DNA from: a virus
Length of the DNA stretch: 64,000 bases
Virus record (IMG/VR): IMGVR_UViG_3300005613_000006
Location: 96,001-160,000 of that record
Reading direction: 5' to 3' (one strand)
The notes below the pieces were generated by a model that saw nothing but the letters and a program-made list of their open reading frames with translations, did no database searches and was not told where the DNA came from. Positions 2,769 through 62,494 of the stretch are shown piece by piece. How positions within the stretch are numbered: position 1 is the first letter of the stretch; each line of letters opens with the position of its first letter. The position numbers were made by a program, and so were the translations under genes.

Positions 2769-3442
2769 TACTCTATCTCTCCTATGTTATCAAAAACAAC
2801 TGGAATGAGAAGCCGCATTTCCTTGAGCAGCGGTTTCATTACCTCTCGAATCTGCGGGTGGGCGGCGTGTGCTGTGCGTAGGTTGAATACGTGCCGCCAC
2901 TCCCGCAAGTTGTATGTCGCCACGATTTCAGTCTTGAGACTGTTGGGTAAGACGCTACGAGCCTCTTGTGCTGCCCACTTGAAATGTTTGCGAAGGGTAT
3001 GATACCAATGCTCAGCATCTAGCATTGCGATTATCCAAGCTGCGCCTGGGGTATTGGCATCGGCGTGAACACCCCCGCCCTCATAGGTTCCTGGGGCTAT
3101 ATCCAGCCACAGCGGCTTGATGAACTTGATATGCTCACCACCGTAGTCACAATAGCGGGTAGACTCCTGTGAGTACGCTGCCAACCTGTGTCGCACAAGT
3201 TCGTGACTTATGCCTCGGTCAATAACAAAGCGAACGCTCACACTCTCATGCTCAAGAACACTATGGTGTCCTCGCGCAATAATCTTCCGCACAAATTCAC
3301 GGGCGGAATCGTTGGTGATTGCTGCCTCACTCTTGTAACAGGTACGACCGGCTGCTTCAATGCGTTTGAGCATGTCCACGCCGGTCATTCCCTGCTTATG
3401 CAACGGAGTCAGAATCTCACAGCTAGGTAGTACGACTTCCAT
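2768..3442 (-). CDS. thyX: FAD-dependent thymidylate synthase
   Basis: HHSVLEH and RHRLAAYSQESTRY motifs. Confidence 0.96.
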   Translation of the reverse strand: MEVVLPSCEILTPLHKQGMTGVDMLKRIEAAGRTCYKSEAAITNDSAREFVRKIIARGHHSVLEHESVSVRFVIDRGISHELVRHRLAAYSQESTRYCDYGGEHIKFIKPLWLDIAPGTYEGGGVHADANTPGAAWIIAMLDAEHWYHTLRKHFKWAAQEARSVLPNSLKTEIVATYNLREWRHVFNLRTAHAAHPQIREVMKPLLKEMRLLIPVVFDNIGEIE

Positions 3443-3638
3443 GCTTTGCCTTCCACTTCTTATCTAGGGCTGCTAGTTTAGCGTCAAGGTCTGCCTTAGC
3501 CCGTTTCTTTTCGTTCCATTGGTGCCCACAAGTTAGACAATAGTAGTCGTTAAGGCGTCGAATGTCACCCCGACGATGGGTGCGCCTTTTATTACAGCGA
3601 GGACACCTGGGATGAAATCTAGGAGTAGGTGGCATCAT
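3423..3638 (-). CDS. small Zn-ribbon protein
   Basis: CPRC...CLTCGHQW; TAATG coupling to upstream gene. Confidence 0.55.
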   Translation of the reverse strand: MMPPTPRFHPRCPRCNKRRTHRRGDIRRLNDYYCLTCGHQWNEKKRAKADLDAKLAALDKKWKAKHGSRTT

Positions 3639-25098: not shown

Positions 25099-25360
25099 AT
25101 ACGCACACGCTAAACTCTACGTCCCAATGGATTACGAACGCAAAACCGTGTGCGTCGATGGCATTCGCCATCCAAAGAGTCCTGACTGGTTCGCCTTCTG
25201 TGTTTATCCCTTGCAGCAACCCATAGGTGTCGCTTCAACTGCAAGGCCCAGTATCTCTCACCGTACATCTCAGGGCTGTTGCCAACCACGTTCGTCAGCT
25301 TACACCCAGGCTTTCGAGGCCCCCATCGGAAGACTACGGACTGCCGTTTTCTGGACTCAG

Positions 25361-25428
25361 TGGAGCGACGGGGACTCGAACCCCGCCTCCGACCGTGCAA
25401 AGGTCAGGTCTAGCCCTCTAGCCACCCC
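25361..25428 (-). tRNA. tRNA-Ala(TGC), reduced D arm
   Basis: G3:U70 pair, T arm. Confidence 0.8.
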
Positions 25429-25473
25429 TTTTTGCTCGTCGTACAAGGTATTATACACCGGGAATTCGGTTTG

Positions 25474-26103
25474 TCAACCAACTTTTTGAAGATTTTCATG
25501 GACAAACCAAGCATCCCAGCCAACTTCCCTCATCCAGGTGTATCCCTTATCCCTCAGAAAAGTGGTAATATCCTCCAAATACTTGCGGTCTCGCCCCTCA
25601 TGGCAGTTGTGTTCCACGGTGATAATTCCAAACACCCAGGTCCAGTCGTAGGATTTCAGAATGTCTAGCTCCGAGCCCTCTGTGTCGATGGACAGGTAGT
25701 TAACGTAGGAAGGAGCGCCGTGTTCGGCCAGGAGGTCATGTAACGTGACGCACGGAATCTCCACTTCCCTCCCAAACTGCTGTCTTTCTTTCTGATACGG
25801 CTGGTCGAGGTCAACAAACTCTGAAATGGTGGAGCAAACACCACCAGAAAAATCAACCTCGGTGAACTTCACGGTTCCGTTGTGGGTCCACACAGCCCGC
25901 TTGTCCCTCTTGCATGTACGCCCGAACTTGTCGTATTGTTCGTCGTTTATCAACGGGTCCACGCAAATTCCTTGCCACCCCGCCTCGTCTAACAAAAACG
26001 AGTTGCTGAAATGCTCCGCATGGCTTGCGCCGACCTCCACATAGAAGCCCTCGTTCCCTACTTTCTCCAACACGAACTTGTCCTGTCCTAACTGACTAGG
26101 CAT
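25474..26103 (-). CDS. FkbM-family methyltransferase
   Basis: SQLGQD, VEVGA, LSIDTEGSE. Confidence 0.88.
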   Translation of the reverse strand: MPSQLGQDKFVLEKVGNEGFYVEVGASHAEHFSNSFLLDEAGWQGICVDPLINDEQYDKFGRTCKRDKRAVWTHNGTVKFTEVDFSGGVCSTISEFVDLDQPYQKERQQFGREVEIPCVTLHDLLAEHGAPSYVNYLSIDTEGSELDILKSYDWTWVFGIITVEHNCHEGRDRKYLEDITTFLRDKGYTWMREVGWDAWFVHENLQKVG

Positions 26104-50300: not shown

Positions 50301-50440
50301 ATCGTAGCCCGTAACGTGGGCTAATCGGGGGACGACTCAAGAGCCGCCTTCACCACCAACTTTTGACAGAAGTTGGAAACTGGGAGGGTAGCCGAAGCCA
50401 CTCCCACCGCCACCAGTTCTTTATGGAAACTGGAAACCAG

Positions 50441-50513
50441 CGACCCTAGCGGGAATTGAACCCGCGTCGAGAGGTTGAAAGCCTCACATCCTAGTCCACT
50501 AGAAGATAGGGCC
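50441..50513 (-). tRNA. tRNA-Glu(TTC)
   Basis: Cloverleaf. Confidence 0.92.
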
Positions 50514-54293: not shown

Positions 54294-54373
54294 ATTACCA
54301 CCTTTGATTTGGTTCTCTCTCTACTATATTATACACCAAAAAAAGTCACCATATAAGGAAGGAAATGGCAACT

Positions 54374-54655
54374 TTAGGCAAGTGGTCGGACCTGGAAGGT
54401 GTCTCGAATCATCAGAATGAAGTCTTCGTGAAGCCCTCGGGCCTCTGCTTCCAGCGATGCCATAACAGGATAGTCAGGCAAGAACATAAGAACAGCGGCT
54501 AGATTTTCAGCCGCTTCATGTTTACCACTTCTCTCAAAATCCCTGATAGCCGCTCTTATCCCTTTGATAATCTTGCGTCCATCAACACACGAACAGGCCA
54601 CGGTTGTGTCTCCCTGTTTAATGTAGCCCTTGCCTCCGCAAAATGGGCAGTTCAT
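54374..54655 (-). CDS. small Zn-finger protein
   Basis: MNCPFCGGKG...CSC. Confidence 0.6.
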   Translation of the reverse strand: MNCPFCGGKGYIKQGDTTVACSCVDGRKIIKGIRAAIRDFERSGKHEAAENLAAVLMFLPDYPVMASLEAEARGLHEDFILMIRDTFQVRPLA

Positions 54656-54900
54656 AGTCTCTCTCTTTGAGGTAGGAGTCAGTGGACGGCGCGGGAATTG
54701 AACCCGCGTCCTGCGATACCTCCAAAGCAAACGTCTACGTGTGTAGTTTGTTGTTAGGCTGCACAACAAACAAAGCTGTCTCGATGGTGGATATGCCTCT
54801 TGTTTTTTTAGGCACAAGAATAAGCCGTCCCGCGCTTGCCGTTAGGCTGCGCAGGCCAGAATGCCGTTATACTCGGCAGTTAAATTTGGTAGTCGATTTT

Positions 54901-55395
54901 TTATACACGATTCGCTTTTAAGTATTGGATTGCATTTTGTAGCAGGGCAATATCGTCCTGTAAAAAACCAATCCCGCGATTGCATTTGTTACACAACAGA
55001 CCTCGTATTTGTCCAGTCTGGTGGCAATGGTCTATTGCTAGTTTGCAATCTTTACCATGTCCAACTTCAACTCCACAGATTTGACATTGTTCACCGAATT
55101 TTGAAACAAGTTCTTCATATTGCGCAAGCGACTGAGCATCTAAGTGTATGCAATGATTACATTGATACTTGCCGTTGCTCAATAATTGTGGAAAGTTTGA
55201 CAATGGTAATAGTTTGCCACAGTTTTTACATGTGGCCTTGCCGTTTTTTGTATTCTTGGTTTTCGGTTTGTGCAAACCAAGATTAACGGCTTTGTAACGC
55301 AAGGTGGTATAGTTCATGCCAAGCTGACGAGCAGCTTTTCTTAAAGACATTCCACTTTTCACCAAGTTTACAATCTGTTGTTCAACTTCGGTCAT
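54901..55395 (-). CDS. endonuclease VII-type HNH with N-terminal HTH
   Basis: LAIDHCHQTGQIRGLLCNKCNRGIG; own promoter and SD. Confidence 0.92.
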   Translation of the reverse strand: MTEVEQQIVNLVKSGMSLRKAARQLGMNYTTLRYKAVNLGLHKPKTKNTKNGKATCKNCGKLLPLSNFPQLLSNGKYQCNHCIHLDAQSLAQYEELVSKFGEQCQICGVEVGHGKDCKLAIDHCHQTGQIRGLLCNKCNRGIGFLQDDIALLQNAIQYLKANRV

Positions 55396-55466
55396 TGGTG
55401 TTTCCTCCCTATTATTATACACCAGAACTGACCAAAATCGACCAATGCTTAAAAGCGAATCGTGTA
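54904..55466 (-). mobile_element. intervening sequence bounded by a 25-bp inverted repeat
   Basis: TACACGATTCGCTTTTAAGCATTGG (55466-55442) vs CCAATACTTAAAAGCGAATCGTGTA (54928-54904), 24/25 paired. Confidence 0.85.
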
Positions 55467-55537
55467 ACCGTGGCCCTTCGACCAACCACGACACGCGGTT
55501 CACAGCATCAGCACCCAGTCGAAACCTAAATGCCGCC

Positions 55538-55870
55538 CTAAACACTGTCTAACAAAGCAGCGACTTCCTCAACTGTCGCCTCGGCTCCTGTATGTAAGAT
55601 TGCGTCAACAACCTTGCCTCCATGTAGTCTAAACTCACGGAAGCCCATTTCTCGCCTAACACGACGAGCTAACGCCCGCTTCTCCAACCATGTTGGATTT
55701 TGTGCCATGAAAGATACCTCTTCTGAGGACTTACGGCAGCGGTCGCGAATCAGTGGAATCAAACCAATAGCAACTTCGGTAAGCAATAGCAAGAGCGCGG
55801 CGCTCAGTGCCACATTTTGCTCACCCGGTAGATTCAGAACTGTTCTCTCAGCAAAGTCTTCTGGTGTCAT
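55538..55870 (-). CDS. hypothetical membrane protein
   Basis: TM segment. Confidence 0.6.
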   Translation of the reverse strand: MTPEDFAERTVLNLPGEQNVALSAALLLLLTEVAIGLIPLIRDRCRKSSEEVSFMAQNPTWLEKRALARRVRREMGFREFRLHGGKVVDAILHTGAEATVEEVAALLDSV

Positions 55871-55971: not shown

Positions 55972-56044
55972 TTATAATCTATATGCAGACGCCCACTTAC
56001 AAAGTTTGGTCTGAACCTCCTACTATTATTATACACCGCGACTG

Positions 56045-60506: not shown

Positions 60507-60589
60507 CGGAGCCTCCTGATTTGGGGTACACTACATTATACACCAAATCAGACTGCAAAGAAGTCTTGAACCCCTAAGTTTCTAAAAAG

Positions 60590-60922: not shown

Positions 60923-62494
60923 TTAGTCTCCTGAGTAGTTTTCCACGATGGAAACAAAGTCTTCGCCGCTTTCACGGTTGAAGAAGTCGTCCATCACGGT
61001 GAATACGGCATCGCTGAAACCACCCACGTTCAACACAACGCCTTCGCGTTCTGGTGTCTGCGTGGTAGTGTTTGGCGTAATGTCGATGTTCACCAACTTA
61101 CTCTTTGGGTTTCTACTGTGGAACTCAGTCCACTCTTGGGCCGTACCGCCTCGACCACCATGACGACCAAACCAACTTTCGTTGTCCGATACGTAGATGA
61201 TGTTCTCAGCCTTGGCTCTTGTGTTGTTCAAGTGTCGTAGTGGAACCGAGCAGTCGGTTCCCCCACCACCAAAGCTGCGCAAGGTCTGCGCATTGGTCAT
61301 AACACTGTCAAACGGGTTCAAGTGTGCATTGTACAAACGGTTGTCGAATGGCATGATGCTGGCGTTCTTGTTTTGACGGAGTACGCACACTGCGAACAGG
61401 GCGGCTACGTCAACACACTTGGTAACGCTGTACGAACCAGTACGACGGCCCATTGCAACCCAACTCATTGAGCTTGACACGTCCACACCAACCACAGTGC
61501 GGCCTCGGAAGGTCGGCACGTTTTCCGTAGCAATTTCCATAGCTTCCTGCAAGGCGTTACTGATACGGCTGTCGATGGTCACGTTTTGGTACGTGGTCAA
61601 CAGTTGGTATGGGAAGACGTTGCACTGGCGAACCAATTCTGGATTGGCCAACTTCGCGGCCACTTCGTCCACAAATGCGCTGCTACCGAACACACCACGC
61701 TTTTCGAGCATGTTCAAGTTCATACGCAAAGTGTTCCAGGGCATGTTGCGAGCAATGTCACGCCATGCGTTGACACCCAACTTCAAGTTCGTCAAAGCGC
61801 GAAATGGAACGTCTGGGATTTCGTACTCATCTGGCACGTCACCCATTTCCTTCAACGCTTCAAACTGTTGAATGTCTTCTGGTAGGTACTGGTAGTTTTC
61901 GTCGCTCAACTTACCAATCAAGTACGAGAACATAGCTTGCTGTTCTCTACCCACTGGACGTGGGTGTACCATCTTGATAGCATCGGCAAGCGACGGGTTG
62001 CTGTGACCTACGCTGGCGATGTACAGCTTGTACGCACTGCGGTCTTGCAGCCATCGCTGGATGCAACGCTTTACGGCAGTACCAAAGCTACGTCGGCCAA
62101 CGGCACCACTACGAATCAAGTGCATGAAGTTCAACAGCATCTTGCTGTTGTTACACACACGATTGAAGATGGTCTTGACCAACTCGGTTTCGCCTCTGGC
62201 GGCTAGAGTAGCCAACAGGTAAGCAGGAACGTCCTTCATTCGACCAACCTCACGGCTGTAGACCGCTAGCTTGGCCAAAAACTCTGACGAACATTCGTTT
62301 GCCAGCGCTTGGATTTCCTTGACTTGTTCACCGGCGCTGACATAGAAGGTGTTGCTGAACGTACCAGTTACGGCGTACTGTGCCAGGGCATGTTCGTTGG
62401 TCTTGCTGTACGCAAGGCCACCAGCGTGATTTCGCGTGTCTGGACGAGGCGTGTTACGCGAACGACAACGGTTTCTGAAAAGATTCTTGTTCAT
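60923..62494 (-). CDS. rsr: Ro60/Rsr TROVE-domain RNA-binding protein
   Basis: NHAGGLAY, TROVE core, vWA DVSSSM...GGGTD...SDNESW. Confidence 0.93.
   Translation of the reverse strand: MNKNLFRNRCRSRNTPRPDTRNHAGGLAYSKTNEHALAQYAVTGTFSNTFYVSAGEQVKEIQALANECSSEFLAKLAVYSREVGRMKDVPAYLLATLAARGETELVKTIFNRVCNNSKMLLNFMHLIRSGAVGRRSFGTAVKRCIQRWLQDRSAYKLYIASVGHSNPSLADAIKMVHPRPVGREQQAMFSYLIGKLSDENYQYLPEDIQQFEALKEMGDVPDEYEIPDVPFRALTNLKLGVNAWRDIARNMPWNTLRMNLNMLEKRGVFGSSAFVDEVAAKLANPELVRQCNVFPYQLLTTYQNVTIDSRISNALQEAMEIATENVPTFRGRTVVGVDVSSSMSWVAMGRRTGSYSVTKCVDVAALFAVCVLRQNKNASIMPFDNRLYNAHLNPFDSVMTNAQTLRSFGGGGTDCSVPLRHLNNTRAKAENIIYVSDNESWFGRHGGRGGTAQEWTEFHSRNPKSKLVNIDITPNTTTQTPEREGVVLNVGGFSDAVFTVMDDFFNRESGEDFVSIVENYSGD

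Follow-up and report, generated by a model that had tools for sequence, protein, structure and literature searches.

A homing-nuclease cassette inside a phage tmRNA gene, probably insulated by a helix with its own last codons

The 64,000-nucleotide stretch of DNA analysed here (the window) comprises bases 96001-160000 of the 172,878-bp IMG/VR record IMGVR_UViG_3300005613_000006, which belongs to an uncultured, tRNA-rich phage. On its minus strand, at 55538-54683, lies a complete transfer-messenger RNA (tmRNA) gene that is interrupted within the connecting loop of its first pseudoknot (pk1). The insert carries the gene of an endonuclease VII-type HNH nuclease and is closed by a long inverted repeat, the 3' arm of which is formed by the last codons of that gene. 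Comparison with related phages suggests that a site-specific mobile cassette may have spread through a clade of tRNA-rich phages by colonising the pk1 connecting loop of their tmRNA genes; no splicing would be involved, and the first ~25 nt of the cassette would have become complementary to the final codons of the open reading frame (ORF) that it carries. It is reasonably probable that the interrupted tmRNA retains its function, and the reading as a whole, that of a mobile cassette insulated from the RNA which it interrupts, merits the same degree of confidence.

The interrupted tmRNA gene

The hallmarks of a tmRNA listed in the initial annotation of this DNA (an alanine acceptor with G3:U70, the pk1 helices, the resume context and the tag) are each found on the minus strand (Table 1). 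The acceptor stem pairs GGGCGGC (55538-55532) with GCCGTCC (54690-54684) over 7 bp, which include G3:U70, and is followed by a discriminator A at 54683. The 3' end reads in the order GGAC-GCGGG-TTCAATT-CCCGC-GCCGTCC-A, with GGAC directly before the T arm. Stem S1 of pk1 is formed by CGTGG (55490-55486) and CCACG (55473-55469), and stem S2 by TGGTCGA (55484-55478) and TCGACTA (54896-54890). Downstream of the tag lie two more pseudoknot-like regions and the 3' strand of helix P2. The tag frame is open and of equal length in the window and in three related loci (L071, L075 and L073); 3-5 synonymous codon differences separate the window from each of them, and amino-acid replacements among the four occur only at codons 2, 3, 6 and 10.

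The insert hides this gene from the usual tools. ARAGORN makes no tmRNA call at the locus when given the intact stretch, and the Rfam tmRNA model (RF00023) aligns the 3' part alone (54690-54936) with 36.3 bits (E 1e-12) against a gathering cut-off of 47 bits. Once the insert is deleted, ARAGORN calls a tmRNA of 290-294 nt with the tag AEYNGILACAA* for all six deletion boundaries tried around 54904-55466, in keeping with the ~293 nt that had been predicted for the gene without its insert. As ARAGORN is silent and the Rfam score falls below its cut-off, interrupted phage tmRNA genes are probably under-counted.

Table 1. Features of the interrupted tmRNA gene, with positions in the window
Feature	Position	Strand	Basis
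Entire interrupted tmRNA gene, 856-nt precursor span	54683..55538	-	ARAGORN after deletion of the insert; partial RF00023 match; sequence read
tmRNA 5' segment, 70 nt: acceptor 5' strand, TTTCGAC D-loop analogue, P2 5' strand, pk1 S1 hairpin including S2 5' strand	55469..55538	-	
Insert, about 566 nt, limits +/-3 nt, between the 3' strands of pk1 S1 and S2	54903..55468	-	Bounds from the empty alleles L075, L028 and run X3 contig
5' arm of closing helix	55442..55466	-	Duplex prediction, alignment
Two phased TTGGTC repeats (TTGGTCGA, TTGGTCAG), 20 and 10 nt 5' of TATAAT; the first repeats the sequence of the pk1 S2 5' strand	55428..55445	-	
Phage promoter motif GTGTATAAT, extended -10 type, without -35	55414..55422	-	Over-representation in the window
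Shine-Dalgarno GGGAGG of the nuclease ORF, within the loop of a small TGGTGT/ACACCA hairpin	55404..55409	-	Sequence read
ORF of 164 aa, N-terminal helix-turn-helix (HTH) and endonuclease VII-type HNH nuclease	54901..55395	-	PF02945, E 3.9e-19; HTH families (Pfam)
3' arm of closing helix, the last eight sense codons of the ORF (QYLKANRV)	54904..54928	-	
tmRNA 3' segment, 220 nt: A-rich pk1 loop, S2 3' strand, tag ORF, downstream pseudoknots, P2 3' strand, T arm, acceptor 3' strand	54683..54902	-	
Tag reading frame GCC...TAA, 11 codons, AEYNGILACAA*; resume context TTTAACT-GCC	54842..54877	-	ARAGORN
T arm GCGGG-TTCAATT-CCCGC, canonical; compensatory changes in relatives	54691..54707	-	Sequence read, Rfam, alignment

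Filled, empty, decayed and lost alleles

The same pk1 site is occupied in other metagenomic phages, with nuclease identities of 55% (L024), 57% (L022/L023) and 48% (L074, the contig of which stops before the ORF stop codon). A contig from a marine sequencing run (X1) is also filled, holding the 3' part of the tmRNA and the 3' end of the nuclease at ~86% identity. Among the cassette ORFs synonymous sites are saturated, so that the ratio of non-synonymous to synonymous divergence (dN/dS) between cassettes is not computable; together with a dN of 0.30-0.41, this saturation indicates old lineages with intact genes.

Empty alleles, which the initial annotation had proposed to look for in related phages, were found in three instances, and comparison with them moves the limits of the insert from 54904-55466 to those in Table 1. 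The flanks of L075 are ~85% identical to the window, and its tmRNA scores 92.8 bits with RF00023 despite a contig end that cuts off the 3' end (tag ANTNGTLACAA*). In a contig from a wetland run (X3), position 55469 is joined to 54894 with nine other letters between, and the flanks, including part of the upstream protein gene, are 96-98% identical. The third allele, L028, is more distant and syntenic (RF00023, 101.1 bits) and has a tag resembling that of the interrupted L024. Directly 3' of the L028 tmRNA (873-1390), a different nuclease-like ORF with a zinc-ribbon start and an HNH-like end replaces the 93-aa gene of the window. Both near empty alleles have S2 changed on both strands (TGGTCAT/ATGACTA in L075, 400-450; GTGACTA in X3), changes that would fit target sites which resist the nuclease and can still fold.

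Decay and loss are represented as well. The syntenic 22.7-kb contig L071 holds a cassette of which 220 nt are left, the Shine-Dalgarno sequence, the start codon and the whole nuclease domain having been deleted. The tmRNA of L073 (1074-1246) has lost the 5' strands of P2 and pk1: the stretch from the TCGA of the D-loop analogue to the TCGAC of the pk1 3' strand is missing, apparently by deletion between these two short repeats, and the middle pseudoknots are missing too. No tmRNA is present in L072 (3330-3370), which comes from the same sample as the window. At one and the same site, therefore, alleles are filled (window, X1, L024, L022, L074), decayed (L071) or empty (L075, X3, L028), and with the losses these states, as far as the sequences tell, are the pattern of invasion, decay and loss that is expected of a homing endonuclease gene. 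The pk1 loop also appears to tolerate extra structure, since the tmRNAs of L054 (6491-6934) and L057 (1181-1624), which score 106-112 bits, carry a 34-nt hairpin in the identical loop. This hairpin could be what remains of a lost cassette, or the site could have expanded independently; the GTGTATG in the hairpin loop resembles the promoter motif.

Additional relatives were obtained through the upstream 110-aa gene in a large protein database; among viral contigs this protein had no relatives. Searching viral contigs for exact copies of the T arm and acceptor sequence gave no match, and the INPHARED phages contained no close relative, a tRNA-Pro being the sole match. No tmRNA lay near the endonuclease VII relatives at 13 viral loci, and the more distant full-length homologues of the nuclease (33-35% identity) are free-standing between protein genes. 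A scan of genome contigs with the pk1 word matched eight unrelated bacterial metagenome-assembled genomes and gave no clue to the host.

The closing helix

The initial annotation had described a 25-bp inverted repeat with 24 of 25 positions paired, and pairing, energy and z-score all bear it out. The two arms in the window form 24 pairs with one C.A mismatch, and their duplex has a predicted energy of -41 kcal/mol (z = -9.1 against shuffled arms). Of the 33 pairs that the arms form in the extended duplex, 19 recur in the minimum free energy (MFE) fold of the whole precursor, and the closing helix is present in the MFE folds of all three full precursors. Across the cassettes it spans 24-31 pairs at -35 to -41 kcal/mol (-35 to -37 in the sister cassettes), and in every one it begins 1-5 nt from both junctions.

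The pairing is kept while the sequence changes. The window, L071, L024 and L022 were aligned with MAFFT from sequence only, and the helices predicted for each sequence individually land on the same alignment columns. Of the 21 pairs of the closing helix that were scored in these four sequences, 13 have changed on both sides and 4 are invariant, with 91.7% of cells paired. For all seven helices taken together 92.8% of cells are paired, as compared with 34-46% when the partners are slid by 1-3 columns; the covariation of the whole structure is 0.47 against 0.06-0.10 for slid partners, and none of 500 shuffles reaches the observed value (a count that, with four sequences, is not a probability). 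Chance or mere kinship is unlikely to explain the pairing, because the slid-partner controls are so much lower. Double changes are found also in the acceptor, P2, T stem and pk1 S2 of interrupted alleles, and the window and L024 keep every hallmark of a tmRNA, with compensatory changes.

The decayed allele L071 has lost more than half of the insert through deletions and retains both arms, which differ from those of the window by two double compensatory changes (ACACG/CGTGT to GTACG/CGTAC) and by a mismatch shifted by one pair. Judging by this allele, the helix outlives the nuclease, being kept with compensation where the nuclease is dead. In 12 free-standing endonuclease VII relatives, the pairing between leader and ORF end has z-scores of -1.1 to +2.2, against -4.5 to -9.1 in the cassettes embedded in tmRNA genes; hence the helix is tied to life inside a tmRNA gene and is not a trait of the nuclease family. 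The earlier suggestion that the insert is looped out thus has strong comparative support, with compensatory change in four cassettes and no such helix in free-standing relatives.

The nuclease and its expression signals

That the insert encodes an endonuclease VII-type HNH protein is upheld by the Pfam match and by the intact residues of the domain: the catalytic D122, H123, H125 and N139 and the zinc-binding C104/C107/C135/C138 are invariant among the relatives. The protein is a putative homing nuclease, of which both activity and target are predicted from sequence. The portion outside the ORF amounts to about 73 nt in the window and to about 73-86 nt across the inserts. A second Endonuclease_7 gene is present in the phage genome outside the window (G000:C1:164475-164711, 89 bits).

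The motif GTGTATAAT occurs 21 times in the window against 0.47 copies expected, and 18 of these copies are on the minus (coding) strand. Most sites lie just 5' of genes (for example 54328-54336, 56028-56036 and 60535-60543), with a T-rich run upstream and usually TTTTGG before the motif. Most copies are without a -35 element; a few have TTGACA at 17 nt. A sigma-70 consensus scan misses the promoter of the cassette, which has no -35 match. The claim that the nuclease gene has its own promoter and Shine-Dalgarno sequence is nevertheless reasonable for the former, because the motif is over-represented and stands mostly 5' of genes, and holds for the latter, GGGAGG being present.

Upstream of this promoter, each of four cassettes (window, L024, L022 and L074) has two copies of TTGGTC, placed 10-11 and 20-21 nt upstream of the -10 hexamer. 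In three of the four at least one copy is identical to the local pk1 S2 strand (TTGGTCGA or TTGGTCAA). A stricter rule, under which every cassette would show covariation between its TTGGTCRA copies and the pk1 strand, was rejected, as L074 breaks it (pk1 ...GA, copies ...AC). When the pairing of a copy with the pk1 3' strand is compared with that of the true partner, the energies in three cassettes are -13.0/-12.2, -16.4/-10.7 and -9.8/-8.1 kcal/mol. The conformational switch that had been proposed between the two pairings is thus feasible on energetic grounds in three cassettes; a DNA operator would suit the fixed distance from the -10 hexamer equally well. The repeats could be an operator bound by the putative HTH of the nuclease, and this fits them as well as an RNA switch does. 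Edgell and co-workers are said to have reported in 2004 that I-TevI represses its own synthesis through an operator resembling its homing site. The likeness, purely one of analogy, is that target-like TTGGTC(GA) copies stand just 5' of the -10 hexamer at a fixed spacing in four cassettes; the difference is that the copies may equally have a role at the level of RNA, in competing for the pk1 3' strand.

How the RNA may be made

Since the tmRNA gene begins at the stop codon that ends the preceding ORF, a longer transcript has to be cut to yield its 5' end, presumably by RNase P, as in the maturation of tRNAs and tmRNA. In that transcript a 20-30 bp helix would seal off the ~570-nt insert and bring the separated halves of pk1 back into contact. 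Such insulation would allow the body of the tmRNA to fold and, most likely, still to work. The pk1 of E. coli tmRNA is needed yet replaceable by a hairpin (PMC3968760), and an ORF-bearing intervening sequence (IVS) that RNase III removes is known from the 23S ribosomal RNA (rRNA) of Coxiella (PMC4990558). By analogy, the likeliest single route, to be held tentatively, is that a host RNase III cuts the closing helix to give a two-piece tmRNA, in which pairing in the acceptor stem, P2, pk1 S2 and what is left of the helix would join the pieces. Alternatively, though this is rather doubtful, the RNA could stay in one piece and retain the insert as a lateral arm.

As the internal promoter lies 3' of the 5' arm, only read-through transcripts can form the helix; those that start at the internal promoter are without the 5' arm and would therefore carry an intact nuclease ORF. 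These elements could add up to a fourth form of tmRNA gene, proposed here with due reserve, in which a live homing-nuclease gene resides in the pk1 loop and is removed by double-stranded RNA (dsRNA) cleavage of a helix made from its own last codons, leaving a two-piece tmRNA broken upstream of the tag. If so, cutting the helix would strip the stop codon from nuclease mRNA borne on the precursor, and productive synthesis would come from the internal promoter only. The TTGGTC copies would in that case act as decoys that hold pk1 unformed until the insert is cut away.

Several observations weigh against a functional, insulated tmRNA. The acceptor 3' strand of L071 is GCCGCCC (3425-3450), and the resulting G3:C70 should abolish alanine identity; it is read from a single Logan contig, so that a sequence error is possible. 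The T loop of L022 is the non-canonical GGCAGTT, and ARAGORN makes no call there even after the insert is spliced out. With AGAATCGAC replacing GGTTTCGAC, both partners of the usual contact between D loop and T loop are altered in L022 (2180-2217, 1287-1310), and this altered elbow would represent either decay or co-variation. To judge from L072 and L073, the tmRNA is dispensable in this phage group; being lost or deleted in relatives, it is an accessory gene. In an uncut precursor the TTGGTC copies of the insert, with predicted energies equal to or better than those of the true partner, could block pk1. Searches of the phage genome for RNase III, SmpB, RtcB and RNA ligase found none, and the lack of a phage RNase III, SmpB or RNA ligase implies reliance on the host. 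A search of sequencing runs for the locus matched four DNA runs (by small shares) and no RNA run. Finally, co-conversion during homing could refresh the alleles repeatedly, so conserved flanks are no proof that interrupted genes have survived for long.

Alternative explanations

An interrupted tmRNA gene with a stem-closed, looped-out HNH cassette that is no intron, as the initial annotation had it, stands; the decay of some relatives keeps alive the account, unlikely in our judgement, that the tmRNA gene is dead. The cassette would then have landed in a dispensable accessory gene and the helix would be of use to the cassette, for instance by having read-through transcripts processed or silenced so that the nuclease comes only from its own promoter. 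The missing and deleted tmRNAs of L072 and L073, the G3:C70 of L071 and the odd T loop of L022 speak for such an account, and the internal promoter downstream of the 5' arm agrees with it in limiting the helix to read-through transcripts. It is harder to reconcile with the window, L024 and the near relatives, in which G3:U70, canonical T arms, pk1, P2 and an open tag frame are all preserved alongside changes of the compensatory and synonymous kind. Nor would it lead one to expect that the helix of L071 is kept and compensated although the nuclease gene is destroyed, or that the free-standing relatives, which also face read-through, are without a helix. The start of the helix so close to both junctions suits a rejoining of the flanks, and not control of the Shine-Dalgarno sequence.

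Two further accounts dispense with an unspliced, helix-closed RNA. In one, which we regard as very improbable, the insert is removed and the RNA rejoined into an ordinary one-piece tmRNA, whether by a cryptic ribozyme overlapping the ORF or by a nuclease with an RtcB-type ligase. tmRNA genes with group I introns are indeed known, though in the T loop only (PMC11915505), and a weak match to TROVE (Ro60-like) at another place in the genome is faintly suggestive of RNA repair. Yet the absence of an intron core, as claimed initially, holds: the Rfam group I and group II models match neither 54500-55700, searched at E up to 10, nor the L022 and L024 loci, searched at E up to 1, and the insert has little non-coding sequence. 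In group I introns the upstream exon ends in U, the intron ends in G and the site in tmRNA is the T loop (PMC11915505), whereas here the upstream flank ends in ...CCACG, with G and not U, the insert ends in ...GTGTAT and not in G, and the site is the pk1 loop. For group II, there is no Rfam match to a domain V/VI, and in place of a reverse transcriptase the ORF is the 164-aa HNH nuclease. Rejoining is further disfavoured by L071, in which the helix persists after the loss of over half of the insert, and by the fruitless search of the phage for RtcB or an RNA ligase. The other account, slighter still in our estimate, sees in the inverted repeat no RNA helix but the terminal DNA repeats of an element akin to a transposon, to which a protein would bind. 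The repeats do stand at the extreme ends of a mobile insert, but their sequences vary among cassettes while complementarity is kept, both partners having changed in 13 of the 21 pairs, and G.U pairs occur on the tmRNA strand; repeats recognised by a protein are unlikely because they would hold their sequence. In addition, an HNH/endonuclease VII nuclease is no transposase, all copies occupy one homologous site, the nuclease search of the genome gave no further copy of the element, and the 3' arm is constrained by conserved codons.

Comparison with known systems

The cassette resembles the IVSs of bacterial 23S and 16S rRNA, such as the 428-nt IVS of Coxiella burnetii 23S rRNA (PMC4990558). Like the phage insert, these non-intron inserts in a structural RNA gene replace or extend a loop of the host RNA and may carry an ORF, and a long helix forms between their two ends. 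The host rRNA works as unligated fragments, and the same mechanism may be proposed by analogy for the phage tmRNA. The phage case differs in its host RNA, in the pseudoknot-loop site, in an evidently live homing nuclease with a promoter and in the coding 3' arm, and the cutting by RNase III is for the tmRNA only a proposal.

Other tmRNA genes are split by T-loop group I introns, some with LAGLIDADG genes (PMC11915505). There, too, a nuclease-bearing mobile element divides the tmRNA and presumably spares its function; in the phage the element has no ribozyme core, sits in the pk1 loop, encodes an endonuclease VII-type HNH protein and would have its flanks joined by a simple helix rather than by splicing. 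The permuted two-piece tmRNAs of alpha- and beta-proteobacteria and cyanobacteria (PMC3968760, PMC11915505) consist of two base-paired pieces, as the phage tmRNA would if its helix were cut. The phage gene is, however, colinear, and its break would be in pk1 upstream of the tag, leaving a short 5' piece and a long piece with the tag and T arm; a dsRNA nuclease would make it, and not the enzymes that process tRNA ends. The permuted two-piece model itself (RF04321) was rejected for this locus, since the gene is colinear and the match amounts to 11.9 bits on the T arm alone.

Among nucleases, the characterised relative is F-CphI of cyanophage S-PM2 (LN828717, AJ630128, 'F-CphI: homing endonuclease'), with 34% identity over 87% of the query. 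Both are phage-borne, of the endonuclease VII type, with their own expression signals and a presence that varies between relatives. F-CphI is free-standing between protein genes, whereas the present cassette lies within an RNA gene and is closed by a helix, which the free-standing relatives are without. The neighbour of F-CphI is, we assume, psbA.

A census of 97,179 tmRNA sequences published in 2025 distinguishes three forms (standard, T-loop group I intron and permuted), and places all known introns in the T loop; its authors allow that interruptions elsewhere may have been missed (PMC11915505). The locus and its relatives represent such an overlooked class, and a full-text literature search returned no account of a pk1 insert or of an RNase III-type intervening sequence in tmRNA. 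The novelty would lie in the combination: an intervening sequence joined to a free-standing type of homing endonuclease, in a new host RNA and at a new site, with a helix drawn from the element's own coding sequence. Beside introns and inteins, a plain RNA helix would be a third way for a homing endonuclease to inhabit a gene without killing it. The data set covers the whole cycle of invasion, decay and loss and offers a natural test of how far pk1 can be altered, with possibly a new two-piece topology.

Other features of the window

The window contains 37 tRNA genes, on the minus strand. At 25360-25772 on the same strand ARAGORN reports a 413-nt 'tmRNA' (tag GGYYHFSEG*) that overlaps a tRNA-Ala(tgc) at 25360-25428 and has a copy of GTGTATAAT at 25450-25458; this call is probably false, the Rfam tmRNA model giving 13.4 bits on the tRNA part only. 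A 553-aa open frame at ~61589-62320 (minus strand) has weak matches to TROVE (Ro60-like) of 17 and 15 bits, below the cut-off. A wcaG RNA motif (RF01761) at 50342-50441 (minus strand) scores 47 bits against a cut-off of 42 bits and adjoins tRNA genes.

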